The notes beneath the pieces are model-generated. The model was not told the DNA's origin. It was given only the letters and a program-made list of their open reading frames with translations, and searched no databases. Both the position numbers and the translations under genes were made by a program. A DNA stretch of 62,787 nucleotides, counting the filler. It is 8 parts of 8 records of this genome, joined end to end, with 100 filler letters (N's around TTAATTAATTAA, not from the genome) between each part and the next. Parts side by side here need not be neighbours in the genome. Positions count along the whole stretch, not along the records: positions 28,613 to 37,585 come from SRR31147125_14685; 7 more parts are not named here. The stretch is one strand, 5' to 3'. This document shows positions 2,033-55,920 of this stretch, in pieces. Position 1 is the stretch's first letter. Each line of letters starts with the position of its first letter.

Positions 2033-3220
2033 TCAAGTCATGTACAATGAAATTAAAGCGTCTGCAGCTCGCGTCCAAGAAAAACGATCGCAAACGTCTT
2101 GGGCTCTATTGTGAGCATTCTCTGGCCACAAGTGATAATTTATATAATCTATAACCCCATGAGCTATATCATTTGCTTTACTGGGAAGCAGCAATCCTCC
2201 ACTAACGTCGCAAATTGCGGGTAAAGCTCCCGTAGGCGAGCCAATAACCGGAATGCCTGAAGCTGCAGCATCGAGTGCAGTAAGACAGAAACCTTCCTCA
2301 GTCGAAGGTTGTAAATATAGATGTGTATTGTCATAAAAACGAGCTAAATCTTGAGATGATACGGCTCCAAAAGTTTGTACATAGGTAGACAGGCCTAATC
2401 GGGATATCTTGTCCTCCACTGCTTCTCGATAGCCTTGAACACGGTTTGAAGGTCCAGCAATTGTCCAATTGAAGTCAATCCCTTTTTCACGCAGTATTAT
2501 TGATATATTTGGGATTAAATGTTGCCGTTTATGTGGTGCCCAACCGCCAGCAGTTAGTAGACGGATTTTGCAACCAGTCTTGGGGCACCGGGAAAAAGGT
2601 AACTTCACATGGTTTATCAATGAAGTTGTGACGCCGTGACCAATAACATAAATACGTTCATGGGACAATATTTGAGCCAATTCTGCTTTCACATAATCGC
2701 TCGGAGTTATGTAGGTCGAGAAAATATTTTGACGAAATCGTAATCGATTTTTAAATTTAACAATTTTTAATCTCAAATTTTCTTTTATTCTTTTTACAAT
2801 AGCATCTTCAGGCCAACTCAAACCACACTCCATAGGGGGAACATTGTGAACTGTCACTAACGATCGAACCCCAGTCATCTCTATAGCTTTAGTGTCCAAA
2901 ATCTCCATGAGAAACAAACCAAAGAGAACATGGATGGCATCGACCTTACTTTCTGAAATAATATGATTTATGTGATTTTGAGCTTCCTTGCAAAACCTAT
3001 AACGCTGTGATCTGCTTGGTTCACCAACATTAGGATACCCAGAGCCTAACCAGACAACACGATAAGAATATTCATCTGTTGAATCTACAGGTTTAGGACC
3101 TGGAACAATTAATGAAATATCAAGCCCTTTTTCGACCAGAGCAGAACAGGTTTCATGTACATAATTTACAGTTCCACCAACACGCGGGAAGAAATGTTCA
3201 CTTAAGCAAAGGATCTTCAT
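2033..3220 (-). CDS. Glycosyltransferase family 4 (GT-B)
   Basis: MKILCLSEHFFPRVGG N-terminus; C-terminal EEGFCLTALDAAASGIPVI motif. Confidence 0.88.
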   Translation of the reverse strand: MKILCLSEHFFPRVGGTVNYVHETCSALVEKGLDISLIVPGPKPVDSTDEYSYRVVWLGSGYPNVGEPSRSQRYRFCKEAQNHINHIISESKVDAIHVLFGLFLMEILDTKAIEMTGVRSLVTVHNVPPMECGLSWPEDAIVKRIKENLRLKIVKFKNRLRFRQNIFSTYITPSDYVKAELAQILSHERIYVIGHGVTTSLINHVKLPFSRCPKTGCKIRLLTAGGWAPHKRQHLIPNISIILREKGIDFNWTIAGPSNRVQGYREAVEDKISRLGLSTYVQTFGAVSSQDLARFYDNTHLYLQPSTEEGFCLTALDAAASGIPVIGSPTGALPAICDVSGGLLLPSKANDIAHGVIDYINYHLWPENAHNRAQDVCDRFSWTRAADALISLYMT

Positions 3221-4221
3221 ATTCTCTTCCCTGTCACAAAATAGCGTGTTGTCCTGTAAACTAATAAGGCTCTTGTCGTTAATTCAACTCCGAAGAAAAG
3301 ACGGAACAATCGTTCTAGAAAAGAACCACTACGCGGATATCCAGGAAGAAGCATTTCGGCCAGGGACAATAGATCCCGACAAAAGTCTTTATGTCCTGTC
3401 CAATTTGCCAAGGCTATTTTATCAAGCTTTTTGCACATAGCCCGTTTTATGTCTAGAGGGAGAGTGCCTCCTTTCCGTTGATAAGATTCAATCAACTTCA
3501 CACAAACACGTTTTCGAGCCTCTAACTTTTCTCGTGAATCATTACAAGAAACACGGTTCTCTTGATCATGATGTCTATAGAGATAATTAACTGTAGGAAC
3601 AGGGGTAAAATAATATCCTTCCAATAAAATTCTAAAAAGAAGATCGCCATCCTCATCCGTAACAAGAGAGCTATCGTAAGGCCCGAGTTCCGATAATAAA
3701 TTACGTCTAAATAGAGCACCACAATGGCTCATAAAAGGCGAAACTAACATTTGTACTAGTTGTGTCTGAGGATCCAAGGCAATTTTGGGATAAGCTAAAT
3801 TAACGAAAGATGTACCGCGATCGGTAAAAATGTGCTGGGTCGGTGCAAAACAGATAGATTTGGGATCTAAGGAATTTCCAGAAGCACTCAGAAGAGCTTC
3901 AAGGTGAGCTGAATCAAGTGAGTCATCAGCATCTAAAAATTTAATGAACTTGCCCCTAGCGGTCTTTACCCCAATATTACGAGCTTCAGCTTGCCCACAA
4001 TTCTTCTCAAGTTGAATGAATTTTACACCGAAACTAGCTTGGCTTATAGCACATTCAAAAACACTAATGGCCTCTGGTTTTGAACCATCATCCACTAAAA
4101 CCCATTCGAAATTCTGAAAAGTCTGATTATTAAGTGATTTAACAACCCCAAATAGATCACATGGATTAAGTGCTGGTGTAATCACACTGATGAGAGGTTC
4201 AGTCGTGGGAATACTATTCAA
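3217..4221 (-). CDS. Glycosyltransferase family 2 (GT-A)
   Basis: ISVITPA, VLVDDGS, GQAEARNIG and FLDADD motifs. Confidence 0.9.
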   Translation of the reverse strand: MNSIPTTEPLISVITPALNPCDLFGVVKSLNNQTFQNFEWVLVDDGSKPEAISVFECAISQASFGVKFIQLEKNCGQAEARNIGVKTARGKFIKFLDADDSLDSAHLEALLSASGNSLDPKSICFAPTQHIFTDRGTSFVNLAYPKIALDPQTQLVQMLVSPFMSHCGALFRRNLLSELGPYDSSLVTDEDGDLLFRILLEGYYFTPVPTVNYLYRHHDQENRVSCNDSREKLEARKRVCVKLIESYQRKGGTLPLDIKRAMCKKLDKIALANWTGHKDFCRDLLSLAEMLLPGYPRSGSFLERLFRLFFGVELTTRALLVYRTTRYFVTGKRI

Positions 4222-8642: not shown

Positions 8643-8742
8643 NNNNNNNNNNNNNNNNNNNNNNNNNNNNNNNNNNNNNNNNNNNNTTAATTAATTAANN
8701 NNNNNNNNNNNNNNNNNNNNNNNNNNNNNNNNNNNNNNNNNN
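8643..8742. other. Artificial contig spacer
   Basis: N44-TTAATTAATTAA-N44, with stops in all six frames. Confidence 0.98.
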
Positions 8743-15322: not shown

Positions 15323-15422
15323 NNNNNNNNNNNNNNNNNNNNNNNNNNNNNNNNNNNNNNNNNNNNTTAATTAATTAANNNNNNNNNNNNNNNNNNNNNN
15401 NNNNNNNNNNNNNNNNNNNNNN
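15323..15422. other. Artificial contig spacer
   Basis: N44-TTAATTAATTAA-N44. Confidence 0.98.
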
Positions 15423-28512: not shown

Positions 28513-28612
28513 NNNNNNNNNNNNNNNNNNNNNNNNNNNNNNNNNNNNNNNNNNNNTTAATTAATTAANNNNNNNNNNNNNNNNNNNNNNNNNNNNNNNN
28601 NNNNNNNNNNNN
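28513..28612. other. Artificial contig spacer
   Basis: N44-TTAATTAATTAA-N44. Confidence 0.98.
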
Positions 28613-29489
28613 AAAAAAACAACTGACATCGTATGATGCGGTGGAGCGATATCTTTACGGAAATCCGGCGGAAGCATTGAAACGGGAATATCGTTTCACA
28701 GGGCCTGCAATCACCGTTGTCAATGCCTGCTCTTCGGCAACCGATGCCGTGGGCGTTGCATGGGATTGGCTTCTATCCGGTCAGTGCGATGTTGTGGTGG
28801 CCGGAGGTGCAGATGAGCTCAACCGGGTCCCTTTGGCCGGGTTCAACGCACTGGGGATTTTGAGTGCTTCGCCATGTCGGCCATTTGATGTAAATCGAAG
28901 CGGCCTCAATCTTGGGGAAGGGGCGGGATTTCTGGTTCTGGAGACGCGGTCTTCTGCAAACCAACGGGGCGTATCCCCCATCGTCGAATGCTGCGCCTAT
29001 GCCACGGTATCGGACGGATACCACCTGACATCTCCGAGACCCGACGGATCCGGCCTTGAAGCGGCAATCAAAAAGGCCCTGAGCATGGCTGGAATTTCAA
29101 GTGACGCCGTAGGATTTATCAATGCCCATGGTACCGGAACGGCAACCAATGATCTGATTGAAGGTCGGGTGTTCGGTAAGTTGTTTCCGAATCGTGCAGA
29201 TGGAAGCGGTCTGAATGGAAATGATGAAAATAAAAGCGGTGTGGATATTTGGGCGACAAAAGGCTATACCGGTCACACACTGGGCGCGGCAGGCGGTATT
29301 GAGGCGGTATTGACCGTGGCGGCATTACAGAAGCAAACACTCTTTAAAAGCGCCGGGTTTGAGACCCTGGATGATGCCGTGGGCATTATTCCGGTTCTGA
29401 ATGAGAAACGGATTTGTGCGGAATATGCCATGTCCACGTCACTTGCCTTTGGCGGGATGAATTCCGTTTTGATTTTCCGGAATCTTTAG
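28613..29489 (+). CDS. Beta-ketoacyl-ACP synthase, FabB/F type (5' truncated)
   Basis: Catalytic triad in NACSS, INAHGTGT and KGYTGHTLGAAG; SLAFGG. Confidence 0.92.
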
Positions 29490-29545
29490 TACCTTAGAAA
29501 TAATTCTTGCGTTTTTTGGGCAAGAAATTATTACGTCAAGGTACT
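29488..29545. repeat. Imperfect 58-nt intergenic inverted repeat (REP/MITE-like)
   Basis: AGTACCTT..AATAATT.CTTGC pairs with GCAAG.AATTATT..AAGGTACT. Confidence 0.55.
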
Positions 29546-29589
29546 TATCAGCTCGGCTGGGTTAAGCGCTAATATTCATTCATTGGACT

Positions 29590-30195
29590 ATGAAAATGAA
29601 ATTGATCGGAAAAGCGACAGCGAACAACGGCTCAAACTTGAAACTTCCAGGTGCCCGCCGCGCGGATTTGTTTTGCAAAATGGCGTTAAGGGCGTGTCTG
29701 GATGCATCCCATGCACTCTTATTTCCGGATGAGGATCCTGAAACAGGCATTATTGTGGCCACTCAGTTCGGCCCCCATGCCACGACATTCAAATTTTTGG
29801 ATGGGTTGTTGGCGCATTCGGATAAGAAAGTCTCCCCAACCCTCTTTTCTCATAGTGTACATAATGCTGCGGCTTCATATATCGCAACTGCATTAAATAT
29901 CCGGGGAGCGGCCATGACCCTGACCTGTTTTGAGGATCCTTTAACTCAGGCATTGTCATTGGCAAATACCTGGCTTGAACGCCGGCGGGTCCAACGGGTG
30001 ATCGTCTGCTATGTCGAGGAAAGGTCCGCCCCCTTTGATCACATCCGGACCCAATGTTCACTGCCGTCATATTCCAAAGACGGAATCCAAGAGGGTGCCG
30101 TCGCCTTAATTTTGACCCATGGGGAGGGATTTTCAGTTCCCGACAGCATTGACATTGAAAAGAATTTCAACGCGTTGGAGATATTTCCCGTATGA
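29590..30195 (+). CDS. Truncated ketosynthase homolog / chain-length-factor-like protein
   Basis: RRADLFCKMAL and SPTLFSHSVHNAAASYIA motifs; only 201 aa, lacking the catalytic ACS and His motifs. Confidence 0.78.
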   Translation: MKMKLIGKATANNGSNLKLPGARRADLFCKMALRACLDASHALLFPDEDPETGIIVATQFGPHATTFKFLDGLLAHSDKKVSPTLFSHSVHNAAASYIATALNIRGAAMTLTCFEDPLTQALSLANTWLERRRVQRVIVCYVEERSAPFDHIRTQCSLPSYSKDGIQEGAVALILTHGEGFSVPDSIDIEKNFNALEIFPV

Positions 30196-30446
30196 TTTCA
30201 GAAGAGATAATAAAACAGAAATTGATTGATCAGCTTGTGGAGAATACCGGAATGTCTCCCGGAGAGATCAAAGAGGATACGATGTTTCATGAGATCGGTA
30301 TCAACTCATTGATTCTTGTGGAGCTGTTCGTATTCATTGAAAAAGAGTTTTCCGTTGATCTGATGTCATCCAGTATCACCCATGATGATATCAAAACAGT
30401 CCGGACCCTGGCATCAGGAATTAAAAAATCATTGGAACATCGGTAA
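30192..30446 (+). CDS. Acyl carrier protein
   Basis: Acidic 84-aa protein with EIGINSLILVELFVFIEKEF (phosphopantetheine Ser in NSL). Confidence 0.88.
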   Translation: MISEEIIKQKLIDQLVENTGMSPGEIKEDTMFHEIGINSLILVELFVFIEKEFSVDLMSSSITHDDIKTVRTLASGIKKSLEHR

Positions 30447-30464
30447 GGGGGTAGCGGTAAAAAA

Positions 30465-32033
30465 ATGGTGACCGTCAATAACGGCCAAATCAGTCTACCT
30501 GACACACCAACGCCAATGTCAAGGCATGGAGCGTCTCTAACCGATGCCCGTGAGGGGCGGCATATTACCCGTGAGGGGCGGAAAATTATAAACTCCCCTC
30601 ATTATTTAAATGGAATCGACTGGGTCATGGCCGGTCTCGATGCGTTGAACAAGCAGGCCGTAGGGATCGGAAATCATTCACAGATCGTTATCGAAGTGTC
30701 CGGTCGGATGGAGAGAAATCACCTGTTCAGCCGATTGAAGTGCGTCCTGGCAGAAGGGGCATTGTGTACGGGGGAATCAAAACGGGCATGGCATTTGGCG
30801 CCGTATTGGAAAAGGAAAGCCATTGGATTTTTTTCTGAGGATATTCATGTTGAAGCGCTGAATTCCCCGGACGACACGCAATACAATTTGATTCAACTGC
30901 TCCGGAAACGATGCCGAAGCCCGTTTCCGAATGCATGTGTCATGCTGGCATTTGACCTCATCTATTTTAGAACTCAAACGTTTCTTTTGTGTCGTTTTGA
31001 CCATAAATTTCTTGATGCCAGGGGGGCTGAAGCATTATTGAATGCGCTTCTTTGCTGTAAAGAACGGCCATGGCAAGATCACTTGCCACAACAATGCCTG
31101 AAAACGCTCGAGGGGAGGGGGCGGATCGATTCGATTCAAGATACCCCTGACTTTCCGTCTGACGGTCCCCGGTTGGATAAATGGCGGGAGCGTTTCCATT
31201 CCGGTAAAATCATCAATCGTTTTCTTCGCTCCGCCTATCCTGAAAATGGGTCGGCAGCTTCTTTTTCCATAGCCCAATCTCACAGGAATTCAATCGCTTT
31301 GATCGAAGAAAGGACGCCAAGTGCGTTCTTTTTCTCAAAATCCTTTTTGAAAAAAAGAACGAGAAGACCCACGCTACACCATACCGTTGTGCCGTTCACT
31401 AAAGAAGAAACCCGGAGAGTGGATGTTCACACCATGCAAAAAGCCGGTTATCTCATGGGGGGGATCTACCTGTTGGCATGTACGGCGGCGGTACTGGATG
31501 GATGGTTTTCCGATCGAAAATGTCCGGGAAAAATGGTGGTGCCCGTCAATGTGGATACCCGTGGTGTGAAATTGAGTCAAACGGATATTTTTTTTAACCA
31601 TGTGTCGTTTCTTCAATTTTGTATTGAACGACAGATGGACAAGAAGCAGATCATTGTCGATCTCAAAAAACAGTTCATGGAACAGATCAGGGAAGAGATC
31701 CCTGAGCATTTCAAGAGTGCCGCGTTGTTGATGCGGATTGCCCCCTTGCGGATTTTGGGAGAGGGCATGGGACGTCTCATGAGGAAAAAGCCCTACTCAT
31801 TCTCTTTTTCCTATGTGGGAGAGCAAGGATTTCATAACAATCGAATTTTTGATCATCCGGTCAAGGGGTTGTTTCACATGCCGGTGGTCCCTGTTGAGCC
31901 GGGAGTGGGCGTTTACTTTACCCGTTTCAATGGCACGCTCACCTTGGTCATTTCCGCGTTTGACCATAAAATCGCCAACAGAGATGCCGCCCTTCTGGCG
32001 GATTCGATACAACACAACGTACTCTATGGATAA
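30465..32033 (+). CDS. Condensation-domain-like / CoA-dependent acyltransferase
   Basis: HxxxD motif in FDHKFLDARG; VPVNVDTR and FFNHVSF motifs; FSYVG in the second lobe. Confidence 0.65.
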   Translation: MVTVNNGQISLPDTPTPMSRHGASLTDAREGRHITREGRKIINSPHYLNGIDWVMAGLDALNKQAVGIGNHSQIVIEVSGRMERNHLFSRLKCVLAEGALCTGESKRAWHLAPYWKRKAIGFFSEDIHVEALNSPDDTQYNLIQLLRKRCRSPFPNACVMLAFDLIYFRTQTFLLCRFDHKFLDARGAEALLNALLCCKERPWQDHLPQQCLKTLEGRGRIDSIQDTPDFPSDGPRLDKWRERFHSGKIINRFLRSAYPENGSAASFSIAQSHRNSIALIEERTPSAFFFSKSFLKKRTRRPTLHHTVVPFTKEETRRVDVHTMQKAGYLMGGIYLLACTAAVLDGWFSDRKCPGKMVVPVNVDTRGVKLSQTDIFFNHVSFLQFCIERQMDKKQIIVDLKKQFMEQIREEIPEHFKSAALLMRIAPLRILGEGMGRLMRKKPYSFSFSYVGEQGFHNNRIFDHPVKGLFHMPVVPVEPGVGVYFTRFNGTLTLVISAFDHKIANRDAALLADSIQHNVLYG

Positions 32034-32042
32034 CGGATAACA

Positions 32043-33392
32043 ATGGGATTTGATACGGTGGTCGTGGGGGCGGGTGTGGCAGGATTGAGCGCTGCAGTCA
32101 CTGCGGCAAGGCACGGCTTGAAAACCGCGTTGATTGAAAAAAACAGCAGGGTGGGAGGGAGTGCCCGGGACTGTTTTCACACGCATATGGGGGGGCTTTT
32201 TGAAAATGACCCGACATGTCCGTTCAAGGTTGCCAATCCGGGAATATGTGAAGCGCTTTACAGTTATTTTTTCCACAGATATGGAGAGCGCTGCTTGGTA
32301 AAGATGGGGAAAGTTGAGGTGCTGGCCATTGATGGGAACGAACTGTGGCGTTTGTTTACGGATTGGCTGCAAGCGTCGGGTGTCACGGTGCTATTGAACA
32401 CAACATGTACCGACATCACGACGTCCCAATTTACAAATATTTCAGCTGTCACCACAAGCACAGAGGACGTTTCCGATAAAACGAGGGGGTTAAATGCAAC
32501 CGAATCATCAAAAATATCCGACTCATCAGAGGGAATCGGGTCGCCGAAAGTGACTGGATCATCAGAAGCTGCTCACCCACTGTCACTCACTGACTCCATT
32601 GATGCAAACGCTTTTATCGATACCACCGGAAATGCCGTGTTAAGTGCCATTTGTTCAAAAGACGCGGTTGTTGAATTGGACCAAAGGCAGCTGGGAGGCT
32701 ACTGCATTCAGCTTGAAGGAGGATTTTCTGAAGATCTGACAATCAAAATTCCCTATGTTGTTCGAAAAATTACGGAAGCGGAACGGTTGAGCCGCTACTT
32801 GGGGTTTGTCTCGGTCAGCTCAAGTCCTTTCGATACCACCTGGGTCATCAAATTTTCACTGCTCAATGAAGATGAAATCGCAGTATGCGATCTCCTTTTC
32901 CGGAAGTTGCAAAATGAGTTTCCACAAATAGCAACCGCACAAGTACTTGCCCGGTCGGAAAGGATTAATTATCGGGATGGAATGCTTCCTAAGGGGATGG
33001 CGGCAGCAGAATATGTTGAACGAGACGATCGACCGGATATATCAAAATTTCACTCCCCTCAACAAAACCGGGACACATCTCAGCGGAACCGGGATGTGTC
33101 TCAACTGAATTGGGACGCGTCTTGCAGGGACCGGGAAGTCAAAGGGTTCTGGCCCGCTGAATTTTGGGATGTCCATCAAGGGCCGCAGTTTGAATATTGT
33201 CATGGGAGATCCTATTTTCGGGTAAGGCCGTCGGCACTCACTTCTGCGGTAATGAGAAATCTCTTTTTCGGTGGCAGAAGTATCAATGCATCGGCCAACG
33301 CCCAAGCATCCTTGCGCGTCATGGGAACCTGTATCGCCACTGGAGAGTCGGCAGCGCATTGTGCCGTGCAATATCTTAAAACCCAAACATGA
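32043..33392 (+). CDS. FAD-dependent oxidoreductase
   Basis: DTVVVGAGVAGLSAA...LIEK Rossmann fold; FIDTTGNA; NLFFGGRSI...SLRVMGTCIATGE. Confidence 0.85.
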   Translation: MGFDTVVVGAGVAGLSAAVTAARHGLKTALIEKNSRVGGSARDCFHTHMGGLFENDPTCPFKVANPGICEALYSYFFHRYGERCLVKMGKVEVLAIDGNELWRLFTDWLQASGVTVLLNTTCTDITTSQFTNISAVTTSTEDVSDKTRGLNATESSKISDSSEGIGSPKVTGSSEAAHPLSLTDSIDANAFIDTTGNAVLSAICSKDAVVELDQRQLGGYCIQLEGGFSEDLTIKIPYVVRKITEAERLSRYLGFVSVSSSPFDTTWVIKFSLLNEDEIAVCDLLFRKLQNEFPQIATAQVLARSERINYRDGMLPKGMAAAEYVERDDRPDISKFHSPQQNRDTSQRNRDVSQLNWDASCRDREVKGFWPAEFWDVHQGPQFEYCHGRSYFRVRPSALTSAVMRNLFFGGRSINASANAQASLRVMGTCIATGESAAHCAVQYLKTQT

Positions 33393-33524
33393 CGGAAATT
33401 AGATTGAAATGTATCAATGTAACCTGGATAGCATGCCATCAAGACCATTCACTTTACTTTGTGATGGATTGCCCGGCGTGGGTGGTTATCTGAAATTCGA
33501 TACGATCAGAGAGTAGACCGCGTT

Positions 33525-35078
33525 ATGAACATCTTACTTGTCAAGCCCTATGCAGAGCTGGAGGTGGCCAAACGGTTATCCGATGCTTTTTTACATCTTG
33601 AACCCCTTGAGCTCGAAATCATAGCCGGCGGGATCGGACCGGAACATGATATCCGTATTTTGGATTTAAGCATTGAAAAAGAGCCGCTCAAGACATTTGA
33701 TGAGACAGTGATTCACTATCGGCCTAAGCTGATCGGGCTTTCCGGCTACAGCTCAACCGCTCATATTGTCAAAGCATTGGCTCGGCGGACAAAGGAACTT
33801 CTTTCATCAGAAGTGCTTGTGGTGGTCGGCGGTATCCATGCCACCATCTATCCGGCCGACTATAATACCGGCTGCTTCGATGCGATTGTCCGCGGAGAGG
33901 GGGCCACGGCCATGTCTCACATTTTGGGTCAGCTGAAAAAAGGGGAGAATATCCATAATGGAAGTACGATACTCGATCCGTCGTCATCGGGATTTCAATC
34001 CATTGCCCAATCACCGCCCCCTCGATATGCACCACTTGAAAAGATTCCGCTGCCGAGACGGGATTTGGTGGATCGCTCCCGCTATTTTTGCATCTGGACC
34101 CACAGCGATACCGGACGCCTTGAAACGATATTTCCCAGGGTGGCCAGTTTAAGAACGTCTCTAGGCTGCCCTTTTTTCTGCTCTTTTTGCGTCATTCCCT
34201 TTGCCATGAACCGGGCTTATCTGCAGCGAACGCCCGAAGAGGTGGTCAACGAAATAGAACAGCTCACCGAAACGCATGTCTACTTTGTCGATGACGAGAT
34301 GTTCATCAATATGAAACGAGTGACGCAGATTGCCGAGCGCATCAAAGCACGCGGTATCAGAAAAAAATATATCAGTTGGGCCAGAAGCGACACCATTGTC
34401 AAGCATCCCGAGGTATTCAAGTTGTGGAAGGAGGTGGGACTGGATGTCGTTTATGTGGGGCTTGAATCCATGGATGAGCGCCGTCTTTCAGAATACAACA
34501 AGAAAACATCCATTGAGATCAACAAAGAGGCGATCCGAATATTAAAGGGCTTGAACATTACCCTCCATGCGGCATTTATTGTCCATCCCGATTTCAATAA
34601 AGCGGACTTTACCCGGCTTGAAAAGGAGATCGCCCGTGTCAGTCCGGCTGAAATTACCTTTACGGTGCTCTCGCCGTCACCGGGAACTCAATTTTTCCGT
34701 GACAACCGGGATCGATTTATCTGCGATCCATTTCGATTTTACGACTGCATGCATTCGGTCGTGCCGACGCGGTTGCCGCTTCAAATGTTTTACCAACATT
34801 TCGGTCGCCTCTACTCCCTTGCGTTGCGGGCCAATCCCCTTCGTAGAAACAGGATCAAAGTCCCGATAAAGGATCTGTTTACCGCCATTATGTTGGGGAC
34901 AAAGTATATTTTCTCATTATACCGGATCTATAAGGACTATCCCGATACCATGTGGAAAAAAAGCGGGAATGCCTTGCTGCAAGCGGTGGATTGTAAACTC
35001 ATGCGGGAAACCCGCACCCCGAACGCCTTTCATCAGAGTCCTGTTTTTTCCGACAAAAATCGAGATGTAAGGTACTAA
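33525..35078 (+). CDS. Cobalamin-dependent radical SAM enzyme
   Basis: HLEPLELE and VVVGGIHAT in the B12-binding domain; GCPFFCSFC (CxxxCxxC); YFVDDE, VYVGLES and PSPGT. Confidence 0.92.
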   Translation: MNILLVKPYAELEVAKRLSDAFLHLEPLELEIIAGGIGPEHDIRILDLSIEKEPLKTFDETVIHYRPKLIGLSGYSSTAHIVKALARRTKELLSSEVLVVVGGIHATIYPADYNTGCFDAIVRGEGATAMSHILGQLKKGENIHNGSTILDPSSSGFQSIAQSPPPRYAPLEKIPLPRRDLVDRSRYFCIWTHSDTGRLETIFPRVASLRTSLGCPFFCSFCVIPFAMNRAYLQRTPEEVVNEIEQLTETHVYFVDDEMFINMKRVTQIAERIKARGIRKKYISWARSDTIVKHPEVFKLWKEVGLDVVYVGLESMDERRLSEYNKKTSIEINKEAIRILKGLNITLHAAFIVHPDFNKADFTRLEKEIARVSPAEITFTVLSPSPGTQFFRDNRDRFICDPFRFYDCMHSVVPTRLPLQMFYQHFGRLYSLALRANPLRRNRIKVPIKDLFTAIMLGTKYIFSLYRIYKDYPDTMWKKSGNALLQAVDCKLMRETRTPNAFHQSPVFSDKNRDVRY

Positions 35079-35086
35079 AGAAGGCA

Positions 35087-36673
35087 GTGATGACCGGAAT
35101 GAAAAGTCACGCGAATAAAGACAATGACGAGCATGTCGCATCTTCCGACACAACAGGACATGAAGCGCCCGACACATGTAAAGAGAGGAGGTTTCATGCA
35201 AAAAAGGGGCGGATCAATATTGTCGATGCAATCAGAAAAGAGGCGGGACCGTATCTTTCTCAATATGCCGTCAGTCAGGAAGATAAAAGCATCTCCTACG
35301 GTACCCTGCTGGATGCTGTGGATACATGCCGCACCGTTCTGATCGATAAGGGCGGTGTGGGGCCGTGCTGCCGGGTGGCTCTTTTGTGTGAAGACTCCAT
35401 TCAGTACATTATTTCTGCACTCGGGGTGCTGGATGCAGGCGCAATAATGATTCCGGCATCTCCGTCGCTCTCCATCAAAGAGTTTGATGGGTTGTGTGAC
35501 AGAATGGCTGCATCCCATGTGATCAGCGCACAGCCGCTTTTTTCCCGTCAACCCGATCTCCCGACAGATACGGATTATGAAAAAGTCGTTTCATTGGGTG
35601 AGAATCTCTCCCTTTATCGCATCAAGTCGATGCGTTCCGGTTGTACCGATTCCATCGGAAACCGCAAGCCGCCCTTACAATTTCCTTCCGACGTTTCGGA
35701 CCCTGCGTTCATCCGATTTACTTCAGGGACGACCGGTGTGAATAAAGGGGTGTTGTTAACCCATCAGGCCATTATTGAGAGAACCGACGCGGCAGATGAG
35801 CGATTGAAAATCACACACAAAGAGACGGTGGCATGGTTTTTATCCATGAGTTATCATTTTGTGGTGACGATTTTGCTTTTTTTAAGACGAGGGGCTCATA
35901 TTGTTCTTGCCGGCCATGGATTCCCCAAAGGGGCCATTGAAATGATGACACGCTTTCCTCCCACATTCATTTACGCCTCTCCGTTTCATTACGCATTTAT
36001 GACAAGCAGTCTTGATTTTTCATCAACGCTGTTACAGGGGATTCGAATGGCCGTCTCCACGGCCATGGCTTTGGAAAAAAGAACCGCCGAAGCGTTTTCG
36101 GAAAAATTCGGTATTGCCCTTTCCCAGGCATACGGGATTATCGAGGTGGGACTTCCCTTTATCAATGATCGGATGGATGGAGAATTTATGACCGCTGTGG
36201 GACGGCTTCTTCCGGCGTATCAATTGAAATTGACAGATCAAGATGAAGCGGGGCAGGGCAGTATTTTACTGAAAGGCAAGGGGATGTTCGAAGGGTATGT
36301 CTCTCCATGGCTGAGAAGAGAAACGTGGTTTGATACCGGAGATATCGGCCGGATGAAGGAGGGGTATCTTTTCATCTGCGGCCGCCGTAAAAACGTGATC
36401 AACTTCAGTGGCATGAAGATTTTCCCTGAAGAGGTGGAAGAGATCATCCGGGCATTTGAGGGGATCGATGAAGTAAGGGTCTTTGGAGAACCCCATCCGC
36501 TGTACGGCGCACTTCCGGTGGCTGAATACACCCTTTCAGATCCCGATGCCGTGATCCGGTTGCCGGAATTGAAACGGTTTTTGATGAAGCGATTGGATTT
36601 GTATAAAATTCCAAAATCGTTTGTTCAAAAGGAAAAGATCACTAAAACGTTAAGCGGAAAGGTCAAGCGTTAG
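35087..36673 (+). CDS. Class I adenylate-forming enzyme (acyl-CoA or acyl-ACP ligase)
   Basis: FTSGTTGVNKG, YGIIE, WFDTGDIG, GRRKNVI..G.KIFPEEVE and KTLSGKV motifs. Confidence 0.9.
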   Translation: MMTGMKSHANKDNDEHVASSDTTGHEAPDTCKERRFHAKKGRINIVDAIRKEAGPYLSQYAVSQEDKSISYGTLLDAVDTCRTVLIDKGGVGPCCRVALLCEDSIQYIISALGVLDAGAIMIPASPSLSIKEFDGLCDRMAASHVISAQPLFSRQPDLPTDTDYEKVVSLGENLSLYRIKSMRSGCTDSIGNRKPPLQFPSDVSDPAFIRFTSGTTGVNKGVLLTHQAIIERTDAADERLKITHKETVAWFLSMSYHFVVTILLFLRRGAHIVLAGHGFPKGAIEMMTRFPPTFIYASPFHYAFMTSSLDFSSTLLQGIRMAVSTAMALEKRTAEAFSEKFGIALSQAYGIIEVGLPFINDRMDGEFMTAVGRLLPAYQLKLTDQDEAGQGSILLKGKGMFEGYVSPWLRRETWFDTGDIGRMKEGYLFICGRRKNVINFSGMKIFPEEVEEIIRAFEGIDEVRVFGEPHPLYGALPVAEYTLSDPDAVIRLPELKRFLMKRLDLYKIPKSFVQKEKITKTLSGKVKR

Positions 36674-36677
36674 TCCC

Positions 36678-37585
36678 ATGAAGACGAATCCACTGAATTT
36701 GATTGCCCACTGTCCGGAAAGAGAATATGCATCGCTTCAATATGCCGATAAAAAAAAGATCGATGCCGTTCAGTTTCAGCTTTTAAAATCCCATCTGCAC
36801 TATGCGGAATCAAACAGTCCCTATTATCGCCGCTGTTTTAAGGATGCCGGAATAACTCCGGACGACATCACCCGCCTTGAAAATCTGTCATTTCTCCCTT
36901 TTACGGAAAAGGAAGCACTCACGCATTCCATTTTACGGTGTGAAGACGATTGCAATGATTTTCTGGCCGCAGCCCCCCATGACATTGCCGATATCTGTTT
37001 GACATCCGCCACCACAGGACCCATGCCCACCGTTATGCCTCAGACCGCCCGGGACCTGGCGCGTCTGGGATATAATGAAGAGCTGGCCTTTCAGATGGCC
37101 GGTATCGATGCTTCGGACAAGGTGATGATCTGTGCGGCTTTGGATCGATGCTTCATGGCCGGGCTGGCGTACTTTCTCGGGAGCATGAAAACCGGTTCAA
37201 CCGCCATTCGGGCCGGATCATCCAATGCCGCGCATTTGTGGGAATTGTCGAAATTGACCCGTCCCACGGTGATCATCGGCGTGCCGTCCTTGATGCATCG
37301 AATTGCCGCCTATGCGTTGGAAAACGGTGAAGATCCGGCAACGTCCGGGATTAATAAATTGGTTGCCATTGGAGAGCCTACCCGGGGAGAAGATCTGGAG
37401 CTGCTGCCCATGGCAAGCCGACTTGAAACCGTGTGGGACGCCCGCATCTACTCTACCTATGCCTCCACGGAACTGGCAACCACCTTTTGCGAATGCGGCA
37501 CCCGTCGGGGCGGACATCTCCGGCCGGAAATGAACGTCATCGAAATTGTGGATGAAGCAGGACGATCCGTTGCCGACGGAACCCC
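36678..37585 (+). CDS. Phenylacetate-CoA-ligase-like (PaaK family) protein (3' truncated)
   Basis: SPYYR...LPFTEK, LTSATTG, IGEP, STYASTE and FCEC motifs. Confidence 0.87.
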
Positions 37586-37685
37586 NNNNNNNNNNNNNNN
37601 NNNNNNNNNNNNNNNNNNNNNNNNNNNNNTTAATTAATTAANNNNNNNNNNNNNNNNNNNNNNNNNNNNNNNNNNNNNNNNNNNN
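37586..37685. other. Artificial contig spacer
   Basis: N44-TTAATTAATTAA-N44. Confidence 0.98.
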
Positions 37686-42952: not shown

Positions 42953-43052
42953 NNNNNNNNNNNNNNNNNNNNNNNNNNNNNNNNNNNNNNNNNNNNTTAA
43001 TTAATTAANNNNNNNNNNNNNNNNNNNNNNNNNNNNNNNNNNNNNNNNNNNN
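42953..43052. other. Artificial contig spacer
   Basis: N44-TTAATTAATTAA-N44. Confidence 0.98.
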
Positions 43053-48805: not shown

Positions 48806-48905
48806 NNNNNNNNNNNNNNNNNNNNNNNNNNNNNNNNNNNNNNNNNNNNTTAATTAATTAANNNNNNNNNNNNNNNNNNNNNNNNNNNNNNNNNNNNNNN
48901 NNNNN
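48806..48905. other. Artificial contig spacer
   Basis: N44-TTAATTAATTAA-N44. Confidence 0.98.
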
Positions 48906-55820: not shown

Positions 55821-55920
55821 NNNNNNNNNNNNNNNNNNNNNNNNNNNNNNNNNNNNNNNNNNNNTTAATTAATTAANNNNNNNNNNNNNNNNNNNNNNNN
55901 NNNNNNNNNNNNNNNNNNNN
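55821..55920. other. Artificial contig spacer
   Basis: N44-TTAATTAATTAA-N44. Confidence 0.98.

Follow-up and report, generated by a model that had tools for sequence, protein, structure and literature searches.

A truncated contig assigned to the ladderane-type family of aryl-polyene-related lipid gene clusters of anaerobic bacteria

The window analysed in this study is a stretch of 62,787 bases in which eight contigs (GC 0.30-0.55) are joined by runs of N around TTAATTAATTAA. Positions 28613-37585 correspond to exactly one contig (8,973 bp, GC 0.49), and it is very probable that this contig is the middle of an operon-like lipid cluster of about 20 genes. We place the cluster in the 'ladderane-type' family, a relative of the aryl polyene (APE) clusters that is widespread in anaerobes. 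Judging from its genes, it appears to use type II fatty-acid/polyketide-like chemistry, and the step-by-step mechanism offered below is tentative. Taking the family assignment and the mechanism together, we give this reading a probability of roughly 0.7. A preliminary description, made from the sequence alone, called the cluster an orphan. That label is wrong, as the family is seen in at least 79 loci; descriptions of it go back to 2009 (PMC2649909), and genome-mining tools now flag it as a matter of routine. The contig is a truncated new example of a known, uncharacterised cluster family.

The contig carries eight open reading frames (ORFs), all on the plus strand, with g1 cut at its 5' end and g8 cut at its 3' end. 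The intergenic gaps from g1 to g8 are 100, -4, 18, 9, 132, 8, and 4 bp, a spacing that points to an operon-like layout. The eight co-oriented, closely spaced genes cut at both ends that were described earlier are confirmed, and the truncation of g1 and g8 agrees with the earlier view that the cluster is larger than the contig. The earlier gene labels were also all correct according to the Pfam and NCBIfam calls, with g4 recognised by its HxxxD motif and condensation fold. The features of the contig and the evidence for each are as follows.

28513-28612, no strand: joiner (N run, TTAATTAATTAA, N run) marking the 5' contig end; direct reading.
28614-29489, plus strand: g1, beta-ketoacyl synthase (KS) of the KS1 type, 5'-open; PF00109 and PF02801.
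29590-30195, plus strand: g2, short KS partner resembling a chain-length factor (CLF), 201 aa; PF13723 Ketoacyl-synt_2, 45.1 bits.
30192-30446, plus strand: g3, acyl carrier protein (ACP), 84 aa; PF00550, 34.4 bits.
30465-32033, plus strand: g4, stand-alone condensation-fold (CAT superfamily) enzyme; fold and invariant DHxxxD, no family model.
32043-33392, plus strand: g5, FAD-dependent oxidoreductase, 449 aa; PF12831 FAD_oxidored, 112.1 bits.
33525-35078, plus strand: g6, cobalamin-binding class B radical SAM enzyme, 517 aa; PF02310 57.4 bits, PF04055 70.3 bits.
35087-36673, plus strand: g7, ANL-superfamily acyl-activating ligase, 528 aa, GTG start; PF00501 167.8 bits and PF13193.
36678-37585, plus strand: g8, PaaK/FlxY-like aryl/acyl-CoA ligase, 3'-open; AMP-binding, FlxY_rubin and PaaK-type models.
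37586-37685, no strand: joiner marking the 3' contig end; direct reading.

The family assignment is carried by the conserved neighbourhood of g4. One genome per species (185,579 species) was scanned with a peptide pattern from the alignment of the condensation-like (C-like) proteins. The pattern matched 425 places, of which 104 encode a C-like relative; the best 80 of the 104 were kept, giving 79 loci, and the counts rest on these. By the ranks in the record titles the loci come from Thermodesulfobacteriota (26), Omnitrophota (10), Verrucomicrobiota (10), records labelled Pseudomonadota (7), records labelled Myxococcota (4, with 'Deltaproteobacteria' titles), Planctomycetota (4, one of them a Brocadiaceae bin), Lentisphaerota (2), Nitrospirota (2), Kiritimatiellota (1), and records labelled Methanobacteriota (1) and Peregrinibacteriota (1), and 11 have no phylum.

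Neighbours were counted by tblastn with the eight window proteins when they were co-oriented, using only loci with sufficient flank. In 58 of 68 loci the gene immediately upstream of the C-like gene encodes the ACP, and in 55 of 63 the PF12831 flavoprotein gene is just downstream. Near the C-like gene there is an ANL ligase in 42 of 47 loci, a CLF-like KS partner in 40 of 52, a KS in 38 of 51, and a g6-type radical SAM enzyme in 25 of the 47 with enough flank (35 of 79 overall). The ACP, C-like enzyme and ligase occur together in 34 of 43 loci (32 of 43 when the flavoprotein is included), and the ligase is kept in six of the eight loci that are without a KS within 5.5 kb upstream. All of g1-g7 are co-oriented together in 15 of 34 loci, and all except g6 in 22 of 34. 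A PaaK-like ligase was found near the cassette in none of the 41 loci whose downstream flank reaches 7 kb or more; it is in place only in L026 (1 of 79, with a flank too short for counting), and L042 has one elsewhere in the locus. The preliminary description had named a lack of conserved co-occurrence as an outcome that would speak against it, and the opposite was found, with strong co-occurrence across loci. Carriers of the cassette include Desulfobacula phenolica, Desulfonema limicola, Desulfamplus magnetovallimortis, and Desulfobacterium sp. N47.

Some records in this set are unusual. L036, L008, and L078 are labelled Methanosarcinales archaeon, Rhodospirillaceae, and Peregrinibacteria, respectively. 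In the C-like tree L036 and L078 fall among bacterial-labelled rows, with L036 pairing with an Omnitrophota row (L043); L008 is outside that tree, and its genes are about as similar to those of the window as the Desulfobacterales loci are. These odd titles probably reflect binning or labelling and not gene transfer.

The relatives also show what the rest of the cluster looks like. A total of 1,088 ORFs from the 79 loci were clustered, and representatives were scanned against NCBIfam and Pfam. Intact relatives extend the cluster to about 20 genes. In L007 (Desulfobacteraceae) the order is a LolA-like protein (LolA2_flexi, 110 bits, under the cut-off), an MMPL/RND transporter, a 226-aa DUF3261-like protein, a FabZ/ApeI-like dehydratase, a TIGR04072 radical SAM enzyme (631.6 bits against a cut-off of 360 bits), a GT2 glycosyltransferase, an LpxL-like acyltransferase, and an ACP. 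These are followed by the genes corresponding to the contig (KS, short partner, ACP, C-like enzyme, flavoprotein, g6-type radical SAM enzyme, and ligase) and then by FabG, a 4HBT thioesterase, a second KS, a second short partner, and two more B12 radical SAM enzymes. The DUF3261 match in the relatives is weak (20.5 bits, under the 22.3-bit cut-off). L021 likewise carries the extended anchoring and export set. The full cluster has two ACPs, two KS/CLF pairs, and as many as four B12 radical SAM enzymes. Of the 79 loci, 31, 35, 29, and 12 carry the respective radical SAM types, and 7 carry all four. The TIGR04072 family is the one found in 31 of 79; it lies upstream in the relatives, and in the window it would fall past the 5' cut.

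Two further families accompany the KS genes of the relatives. Family '9' (L021 8794-9540; 25 loci) encodes proteins of ~216-250 aa with no Pfam match, and its genes separate that of the KS partner from that of the ACP; the window, in which g2 and g3 overlap, has no member of it. Family '10' (L021 1162-1953; 24 loci) encodes a second-KS partner of ~240-260 aa, also with no Pfam match, that has a faint fabF-like signal.

The relationship to aryl polyene clusters was examined by BLASTP against the ape cluster of E. coli CFT073 (L080, apeA-R; gene table in PMC8253772). L007 and L021 hold homologues of ApeE, ApeI, ApeJ, ApeK, ApeL, ApeM, ApeO/R, and ApeQ, and the FabG/ketoreductase (KR) of the relatives is 47% identical to ApeQ. 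Both cluster types have a KS with a chain-length-factor partner and a dedicated ACP, which are on the window, with two ACPs in the full cluster. The full relatives also share with APE clusters a KR, an ApeI-like dehydratase (DH), a 4HBT thioesterase (TE), glycosyltransferase and acyltransferase functions, and LolA-like, MMPL, and DUF3261-like proteins. The presence of these homologues indicates that the family has an aryl-polyene-like chassis (KS/CLF, ACPs, KR, DH, TE, anchoring, and export). There are also differences. ApeJ is a single glycosyltransferase/acyltransferase of 558 aa, whereas its counterpart in the relatives is two adjacent genes, which are located as follows.

L007 5573-7634: GT2 glycosyltransferase with DUF2062 and LpxL-like acyltransferase.
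L021 4502-6298: GT2 glycosyltransferase with DUF2062 and LpxL-like acyltransferase.
L080 36213-37889: ApeJ.

ApeH, ApeB, ApeD, and ApeG had no match at E <= 1e-3, and the E. coli cluster is without a radical SAM enzyme, a PF12831 flavoprotein, or a condensation-fold enzyme, the counterparts of g4-g6. Unlike the APE cluster of E. coli, the window-type cluster is carried by anaerobes. To the APE-like chassis the family adds a set of radical SAM enzymes and the C-like/flavoprotein/ligase cassette.

In NCBIfam, g1 scores best on NF006618 (239.7 bits) and fabF (222.3 bits), without reaching the cut-off of either; the FabF equivalog model TIGR03150 has a cut-off of 493.75 bits, which is not reached by the g1 fragment (222.3) or by the full-length L007 orthologue (288.3). 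In the alignment g1 retains the catalytic Cys and the two His motifs, so the catalytic triad is intact. The protein is 68.5% identical to the KS of L022 and aligns from residue 118 of that 399-aa protein, which indicates that ~117 N-terminal residues of g1 are missing. The partner g2, aligned with the KS and 25 relatives, has a Glu at the position of the catalytic Cys and only the N-terminal half of the thiolase fold; its stop and the g3 start share 4 bp. A Glu or Asp at the KS Cys position is also listed for Rhodopirellula paralogues in Table 2 of Rattray et al. (PMC2649909). Among the 39 KS/CLF pairs listed, the partner has 193 aa in 6, 215-240 aa in 3, and 305-409 aa in 30, and 201-aa forms are those of the window (g2) and L022. 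By this comparison the half-length partner belongs to the lineage of the window copy, and together with the extra PaaK-like ligase it marks the window variant. A KS/CLF heterodimer has been published for ApeO-ApeC (PMC8253772), and the anammox amxFabF2/amxFabFmut pair is described as a KS/CLF-like heterodimer (bioRxiv 10.64898/2026.05.19.726425). By analogy, we infer that g1 and g2 act as a putative heterodimer.

The KS tree that had been suggested in the preliminary description was built with 60 rows, and its references were E. coli FabF, ApeO, and ApeR only. Both the cassette-adjacent KS1 (41 rows) and KS2, the second KS (15 rows), are recovered as single clades with a support of 100, and g1 lies within KS1 beside L022 (SH-aLRT 99). 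The three E. coli proteins are on long branches outside KS1, so that against these FabF and aryl polyene references KS1 is a clade of its own; g1 is 35% identical to ApeO by BLASTP. The highly reducing type II polyketide synthases (cispentacin; Iga11/12 of ishigamide) likewise combine a KS with a discrete ACP and a partner that is truncated or inactive. The matches of g1 to AmcF (201.5 bits), g2 to AmcG (29.8 bits), and g3 to AmcB (27.7 bits) of the cispentacin system are under the respective cut-offs of 325, 80, and 80 bits, and the tailoring set and the taxa differ.

Clusters resembling type II fatty acid synthase (FAS II) systems were described in Kuenenia stuttgartiensis by Rattray et al. 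in 2009 (PMC2649909). They contain divergent FabF paralogues that lack the active-site Cys, together with radical SAM enzymes, flavoproteins resembling phytoene desaturase, a phenylacetyl-CoA ligase, and a glycosyltransferase. The same study reported 'striking' synteny in Desulfotalea psychrophila, which makes unusual polyunsaturated hydrocarbons and no ladderanes. More recent surveys found expressed biosynthetic gene clusters (BGCs) of the antiSMASH 'ladderane' class in Desulfobacterota, Omnitrophota, Verrucomicrobiota, Planctomycetota, and other phyla, with their function given as unknown (PMC9902471; PMC11968836). Almost nothing is said to be known of ladderane biosynthesis (bioRxiv 10.64898/2026.05.19.726425), and the pathway is described as still unsolved in that preprint and in PMC13459092. 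Our literature search found no characterisation of such a cluster from outside the anammox bacteria and no paper that names the C-like family in one, although supplementary files might list such genes, and 'TIGR04072' and its name had no full-text match.

The contig shares several features with these ladderane-type clusters. It has a FabF-type KS (Cys/His/His in g1) adjoining a non-canonical inactive KS (Glu and half a fold in g2), a dedicated ACP, a cobalamin radical SAM enzyme, a flavoprotein, and a phenylacetyl-CoA-ligase-like gene (g8, by the PaaK-type models), with a glycosyltransferase in the wider cluster. The family occurs in anaerobic Desulfobacterota and PVC phyla, the published phylum range of the BGCs fits the loci (PMC9902471), and relatives of the window carry a bona fide TIGR04072 protein. 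It differs from them in that the flavoprotein of the window is of the PF12831 and not the PF01593 'phytoene desaturase' type and that g6 is not a TIGR04072 protein. The two kinships proposed in the preliminary description both held: that to type II aryl polyene systems through the KS with its inactive partner and the Ape homologues of the relatives, and that to the anammox ladderane and deltaproteobacterial clusters through the TIGR04072 member at 631.6 bits and the matching phylum range.

The mechanism that we propose starts with g7, which would adenylate a carboxylic acid and load it onto the ACP g3; g8 may do the same in the sub-lineage of the window. The KS g1 and its inactive partner g2, acting as a heterodimer, would then extend the ACP-bound chain with malonyl units, with the ketoreductase, dehydratase, and thioesterase supplied from elsewhere in the full cluster. 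While the chain is tethered, g5 would oxidise or reduce a C-C/C=C bond and g6 would modify an unactivated carbon, the simplest option being C-methylation and another possibility C-C bond formation. The finished acyl group would be moved by g4 from the ACP to a hydroxyl or amine acceptor, giving an ester or an amide. In the full cluster the GT2 and the LpxL-like acyltransferase would attach the product to an envelope glycolipid anchor, and the LolA-like, MMPL/RND, and DUF3261-like proteins would carry it to the outer membrane, as has been proposed for aryl polyenes. The predicted product is a tailored (methyl-branched, unsaturated, or cyclised) cell-envelope acyl lipid and not a ladderane. The earlier expectation of a lipo-ester or lipo-amide with a dedicated starter, a radical-modified chain, and transfer by an HxxxD enzyme is a reasonable prediction at the product level.

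The carrier protein and the C-like enzyme are central to this scheme. The ACP g3 has its serine in an NSL motif and is 64% identical to the ACPs of L022 and L026. There was no Pfam or NCBIfam match for g4. Its start is uncertain, with homologues being ~440 aa and an in-frame Met at 30519. Among 8,000 candidates scored from a 90%-clustered collection, 193 homologues were found at E <= 0.001, the best being 49% identical and most being 'hypothetical proteins' of ~440 aa; an exhaustive scan of 1.84 billion cluster representatives (50% identity) gave 449 relatives at E <= 0.001. H180 and D184 are invariant in the 24 aligned members, within the stretch D-H-x3-D-A-R-G-A-E. The Condensation family PF00668 matches weakly in 7 of the 24 (best E 2.6e-07) and 2-oxoacid_dh in 5 of the 24, with no match to either for the window copy. 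Against the sequences in the PDB, the profile gave weak matches only (E 0.01-2), at the DHRxxDG active-site motif of E2 acyltransferases.

The fold of g4 is clearer. An AlphaFold2 model made with the alignment has a mean pLDDT of 74 and a pTM of 0.76, the low-confidence parts being the N-terminal 42 residues and two lineage-specific insertions. The Foldseek matches in the PDB are to the condensation superfamily throughout (probability 1.00, E 1e-18 to 1e-14, TM up to 0.72). The top match is AzeD (8s6l, E 1.8e-18, TM 0.61/0.72); further matches are the C, Cy, and E domains of nonribosomal peptide synthetases (NRPSs) and TRI3, with WS/DGAT (6chj), PapA5 (1q9j), and SgcC5 (4znm) at ~1e-14. The 'stand-alone HxxxD enzyme' of the preliminary description is therefore right at the fold level. 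As a lead only, a stored homologue (P0006) in the ESM Atlas falls with unnamed clusters and a minority labelled Condensation, WS_DGAT_C, AATase, and PapA_C. A search of proteins of 915-2610 aa found no fused forms, and this weakly supports g4 being a stand-alone protein. The enzyme shares the two-lobed CAT fold and the catalytic His-x3-Asp with PapA5 (of the mycobacterial phthiocerol dimycocerosate pathway), WS/DGAT, SgcC5, and AzeD, but it is only 10-14% identical to them and its motif is D-H-x3-D-A-R-G and not HHxxxDG. Like PapA5, it is a separate protein encoded beside an acyl-activating ligase and a carrier protein. The FadD28/Mas/PapA5 system is a pairing of a ligase, a carrier, and a free-standing acyltransferase. 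Judging from the model, acyl transfer would be the likeliest role of g4. It is not the sole possible one, as AzeD is reported to be a stand-alone C-family dehydratase and not a transferase (bioRxiv 10.64898/2026.07.17.738954).

Homology of the ligase g7 begins near 35192, and its start is uncertain. The best NCBIfam matches are generic and under the cut-off (PRK06187, 202 bits; malonyl-CoA synthase PRK07514, 154 bits). The nearest solved relatives, at 78-111 bits, are malonyl-CoA synthetases, FadD13, oxalate-CoA ligase, and 4-coumarate ligase (4CL), and the amino-acid adenylation model TIGR01733 gives 127 bits, under its cut-off. It is unlikely, although it is the strongest of the alternatives, that the cassette is instead an NRPS-like 'A-T-C' head-group unit, in which a small acid or amino acid is activated, tailored on the carrier, and joined to the polyketide or fatty chain to give a lipo-amino-acid or acyl-ester lipid. 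The long chain itself would then not be tailored by the cassette. Such a unit would account for the retention of ligase, ACP, and C-like enzyme in 34 of 43 loci and for their occurrence without a nearby KS, as well as for the TIGR01733 score and the small-dicarboxylate ligases among the nearest relatives of g7. The fold that g4 shares with NRPS C domains and the two ACPs and two KS/CLF pairs of the full cluster would fit it too. Set against this, g7 is also near the fatty-acyl ligases, as its PRK06187 score and the relationship to FadD13 indicate.

The tailoring enzymes of the proposed lipid pathway are g5 and g6. The AlphaFold2 model of g5 has a pLDDT of 83 and a pTM of 0.85, and the protein has ~60 extra low-confidence residues compared with its ~390-aa homologues. 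Its fold matches in the PDB are moderate, the best being the geranylgeranyl-reductase-like 3oz2 (TM 0.45/0.50), and others are flavocytochrome c3 fumarate reductases, urocanate reductases, FixC, and flavin halogenases. PDB sequences match at the Rossmann end only. The model suggests that g5 is a two-domain flavoprotein whose nearest analogues act on C=C bonds. The motif WxWxIP is characteristic of halogenases. A role for g5 as a halogenase was rejected because the fold match (TM ~0.37) is no better than those to the reductases and WxWxIP is not in the consensus of the g5-family alignment. In L056 (11263-13872) the flavoprotein and the ANL ligase are encoded by one 869-aa ORF (PF12831 at residues 9-398, AMP-binding at 402-738, and AMP-binding_C at 788-864), a fusion that links the functions of g5 and g7.

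The architecture of g6 is that of the class B radical SAM enzymes, with PF02310 at 57.4 bits (cut-off 32.1), PF04055 at 70.3 bits (cut-off 29.5), and the CxxxCxxC motif. It is 69-72% identical to the copies in L022 and L026, and AprD4 and OxsB, both distant, are its only matches among the PDB sequences. The best named family is HpnR (TIGR04367, 236.8 bits over residues 2-428, cut-off 650), followed by BchE (141.7 bits), and the ladderane-associated model TIGR04072 (rSAM_ladder_B12) gives 54.6 bits against a cut-off of 360, so that g6 is not a member. HpnR, the hopanoid C-3 methylase, resembles g6 in combining B12-binding and radical SAM domains and acts on a lipid, but g6 is far under the 650-bit cut-off and there are no hopanoid genes nearby. 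From these scores g6 belongs to the HpnR/BchE-like branch of the class B radical SAM enzymes.

A somewhat less probable alternative than the NRPS-like unit is that the cluster makes polyunsaturated fatty acids or hydrocarbons by an oxygen-independent pathway of the kind that Rattray et al. suggested for D. psychrophila, with the flavoprotein and the radical SAM enzymes inserting double bonds. It draws on the Kuenenia/D. psychrophila synteny and the unusual hydrocarbons of the latter (PMC2649909), and the best fold matches of g5 (geranylgeranyl reductase-like, fumarate, and urocanate reductases) act by reducing or forming C=C bonds. The flavoproteins of that proposal are of the PF01593 type, however, whereas g5 is a PF12831 protein that scores 17.5 bits on PF01593, under the 19.8-bit cut-off and only over residues 12-41 at the Rossmann end. 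The available text of PMC2649909 gives no link between the genes and the product, and bioRxiv 10.64898/2026.05.19.726425 states that its results refute an early ladderane proposal. D. psychrophila is not in the 79 loci, which come from the best 80 of 104 places, so its absence is not established.

The second ligase, g8, brings in pigment clusters. Its best model is FlxY_rubin (NF053551), on which the fragment scores 246.9 bits against a cut-off of 520, and PaaK-type models also match. It is 61.6% identical to the L026 orthologue and aligns to residues 15-308 of that 457-aa ligase, which indicates that ~149 C-terminal residues are missing. The full-length orthologue scores 393.4 bits on the FlxY model, which is also under the 520-bit cut-off, and 151 bits against the solved phenylacetate-CoA ligase 4r1l. 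In an ordinary aryl polyene or flexirubin-type pigment cluster, g8 would activate an aryl starter and the KS/CLF would build an outer-membrane polyene. The FlxY model being the best match of both g8 and its orthologue favours such a cluster, as do the FlxB-like FabG, the LolA2_flexi-like genes, and the homologues of eight Ape proteins in the relatives, and the membership of g2 in PF13723. We nevertheless consider a pigment cluster improbable. Every flexirubin model is under its cut-off, g8 lies beside the cassette in a single one of the 79 loci and in none of the 41 that have 7 kb or more of flank, and no aryl-acid-forming gene is among the conserved neighbour families. Neither g7 nor g8 matches E. 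coli ApeH at E <= 1e-3 by BLASTP, and ApeB, ApeD, and ApeG are likewise unmatched in the relatives. The radical SAM, flavoprotein, and C-like genes have no place in the APE cluster of E. coli, and KS1 stands apart from ApeO and ApeR in the tree with three references.

The phylogeny bears on the last alternative. In the C-like tree (66 proteins) the window copy is sister to L022 (Desulfarculaceae) and L026 (Desulfobacterales) with an SH-aLRT of 97, and the three are inside a 12-row, essentially Desulfobacterales clade with a support of 100. The identity of g1 and g3-g8 to the L022/L026 proteins is 39.8-71.9%. On these sequences, the host would be a Desulfobacterota bacterium with its nearest relatives among Desulfarculaceae/Desulfobacterales bins. 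A true ladderane lipid cluster from an anammox bacterium has the hallmarks of Kuenenia Cluster I in its favour (KS and non-canonical KS, ACP, and B12 radical SAM enzyme; bioRxiv 10.64898/2026.05.19.726425) and the g4 and g5 homologues of the Brocadiaceae bin L077 at 24-25% identity, but it is very improbable given that the nearest relatives of g1 and g3-g8 are from the bins just named, that g4 and g1 nest in the Desulfobacterales clade, that g6 is far from TIGR04072 (54.6 against 360 bits), and that ladderanes have been reported from anammox bacteria alone and not from D. psychrophila (PMC2649909; PMC9902471). In L077 itself, a URO-D-family gene (3090-4034) follows the C-like and flavoprotein genes, replacing the radical SAM enzyme and the ligase.

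The assignment to a ladderane-type lipid cluster with the mechanism given above thus remains the preferred one, and several points weigh against it. Outside the anammox bacteria, no member of the family has a known product, and the expression of kuste3603-3608 of Kuenenia in E. coli gave no new lipid (Javidpour 2016, PMC4790861). In the available text of that paper the gene list has no condensation-like enzyme and no ANL ligase beyond the phenylacetyl-CoA ligase, and its 'unknown' entries are not comparable. The nearest relatives of g7 are malonyl-/oxalyl-CoA ligases, so it may supply an extender or a dicarboxylate and not a starter. The fold matches of g5 are weak (TM <= 0.50), and its chemistry is therefore left wide. 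The scores of g6 are under the curated cut-off of every named radical SAM family, and BchE, its second-best match, is a non-methylating cyclase. With AzeD as the best structural match, g4 may dehydrate and not transfer. Finally, the anchoring and export genes are seen in the relatives only and are absent from the cut contig.

A broader proposal is that the five-gene cassette (g3-g7) is a self-contained load-tailor-transfer module, of which we found no description, and that it defines a radical-SAM branch of APE-like clusters in anaerobes, including the anammox bacteria. It would make a new class of envelope lipid, with an acyl chain that is methylated or cyclised by radical chemistry on its carrier. 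This proposal is more doubtful than the stepwise mechanism, and we consider it rather unlikely to hold as a whole.

The remaining features of the window are given here. The matches of all ORFs of four related loci (tblastn) were confined to 28613-37585, and no related cluster genes were found on the other seven contigs, which are therefore irrelevant to the cluster. The eight joined contigs look like unrelated contigs or a mixed bin, and the contig at 48906-55820 (GC ~0.33) has an unusually strong GC skew of +0.23 to +0.30. A consensus scan of the cluster contig gave 10 promoter-like sites against 10.8 expected, and 17 terminator-like sites were found against 9.8 expected; most of the sites of both kinds are within coding sequence, and both results are uninformative. 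At E <= 1, Rfam gave two sub-threshold matches inside coding sequence and no riboswitch on the contig. Private low-complexity insertions that the relatives are without are present in g1, g4, and g5. Two proteins, g4 and g5, were modelled with AlphaFold2, and their insertions have a pLDDT < 50.

8643-8742, 15323-15422, 28513-28612, 37586-37685, 42953-43052, 48806-48905, and 55821-55920, no strand: artificial joiners; direct reading.
29230-29275, plus strand: private insertion in g1; comparison with relatives.
31059-31145 and 31251-31358, plus strand: private insertions in g4; comparison with relatives.
~32445-32560 and ~33036-33125, plus strand: private insertions in g5; comparison with relatives.

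Clusters of this type have been called 'ladderane' BGCs and are expressed in many anoxic environments (PMC9902471). The comparison is more useful than the contig itself, as it provides a conserved cassette with per-gene counts across phyla that is absent from the E. coli APE cluster. The C-like enzyme is a marker family that is missed by current domain libraries, and the named carrier species and strains are places where the product could be sought. If the cassette is indeed a module, the C-like family would serve as the marker gene for it and might also supply a step that is still missing from ladderane lipid assembly. A 2026 review names as ketoacyl lipids with a radical SAM modification only the ladderanes and the Jaw5 product (PMC13459092, available text), and the product of such a module would be a third example.

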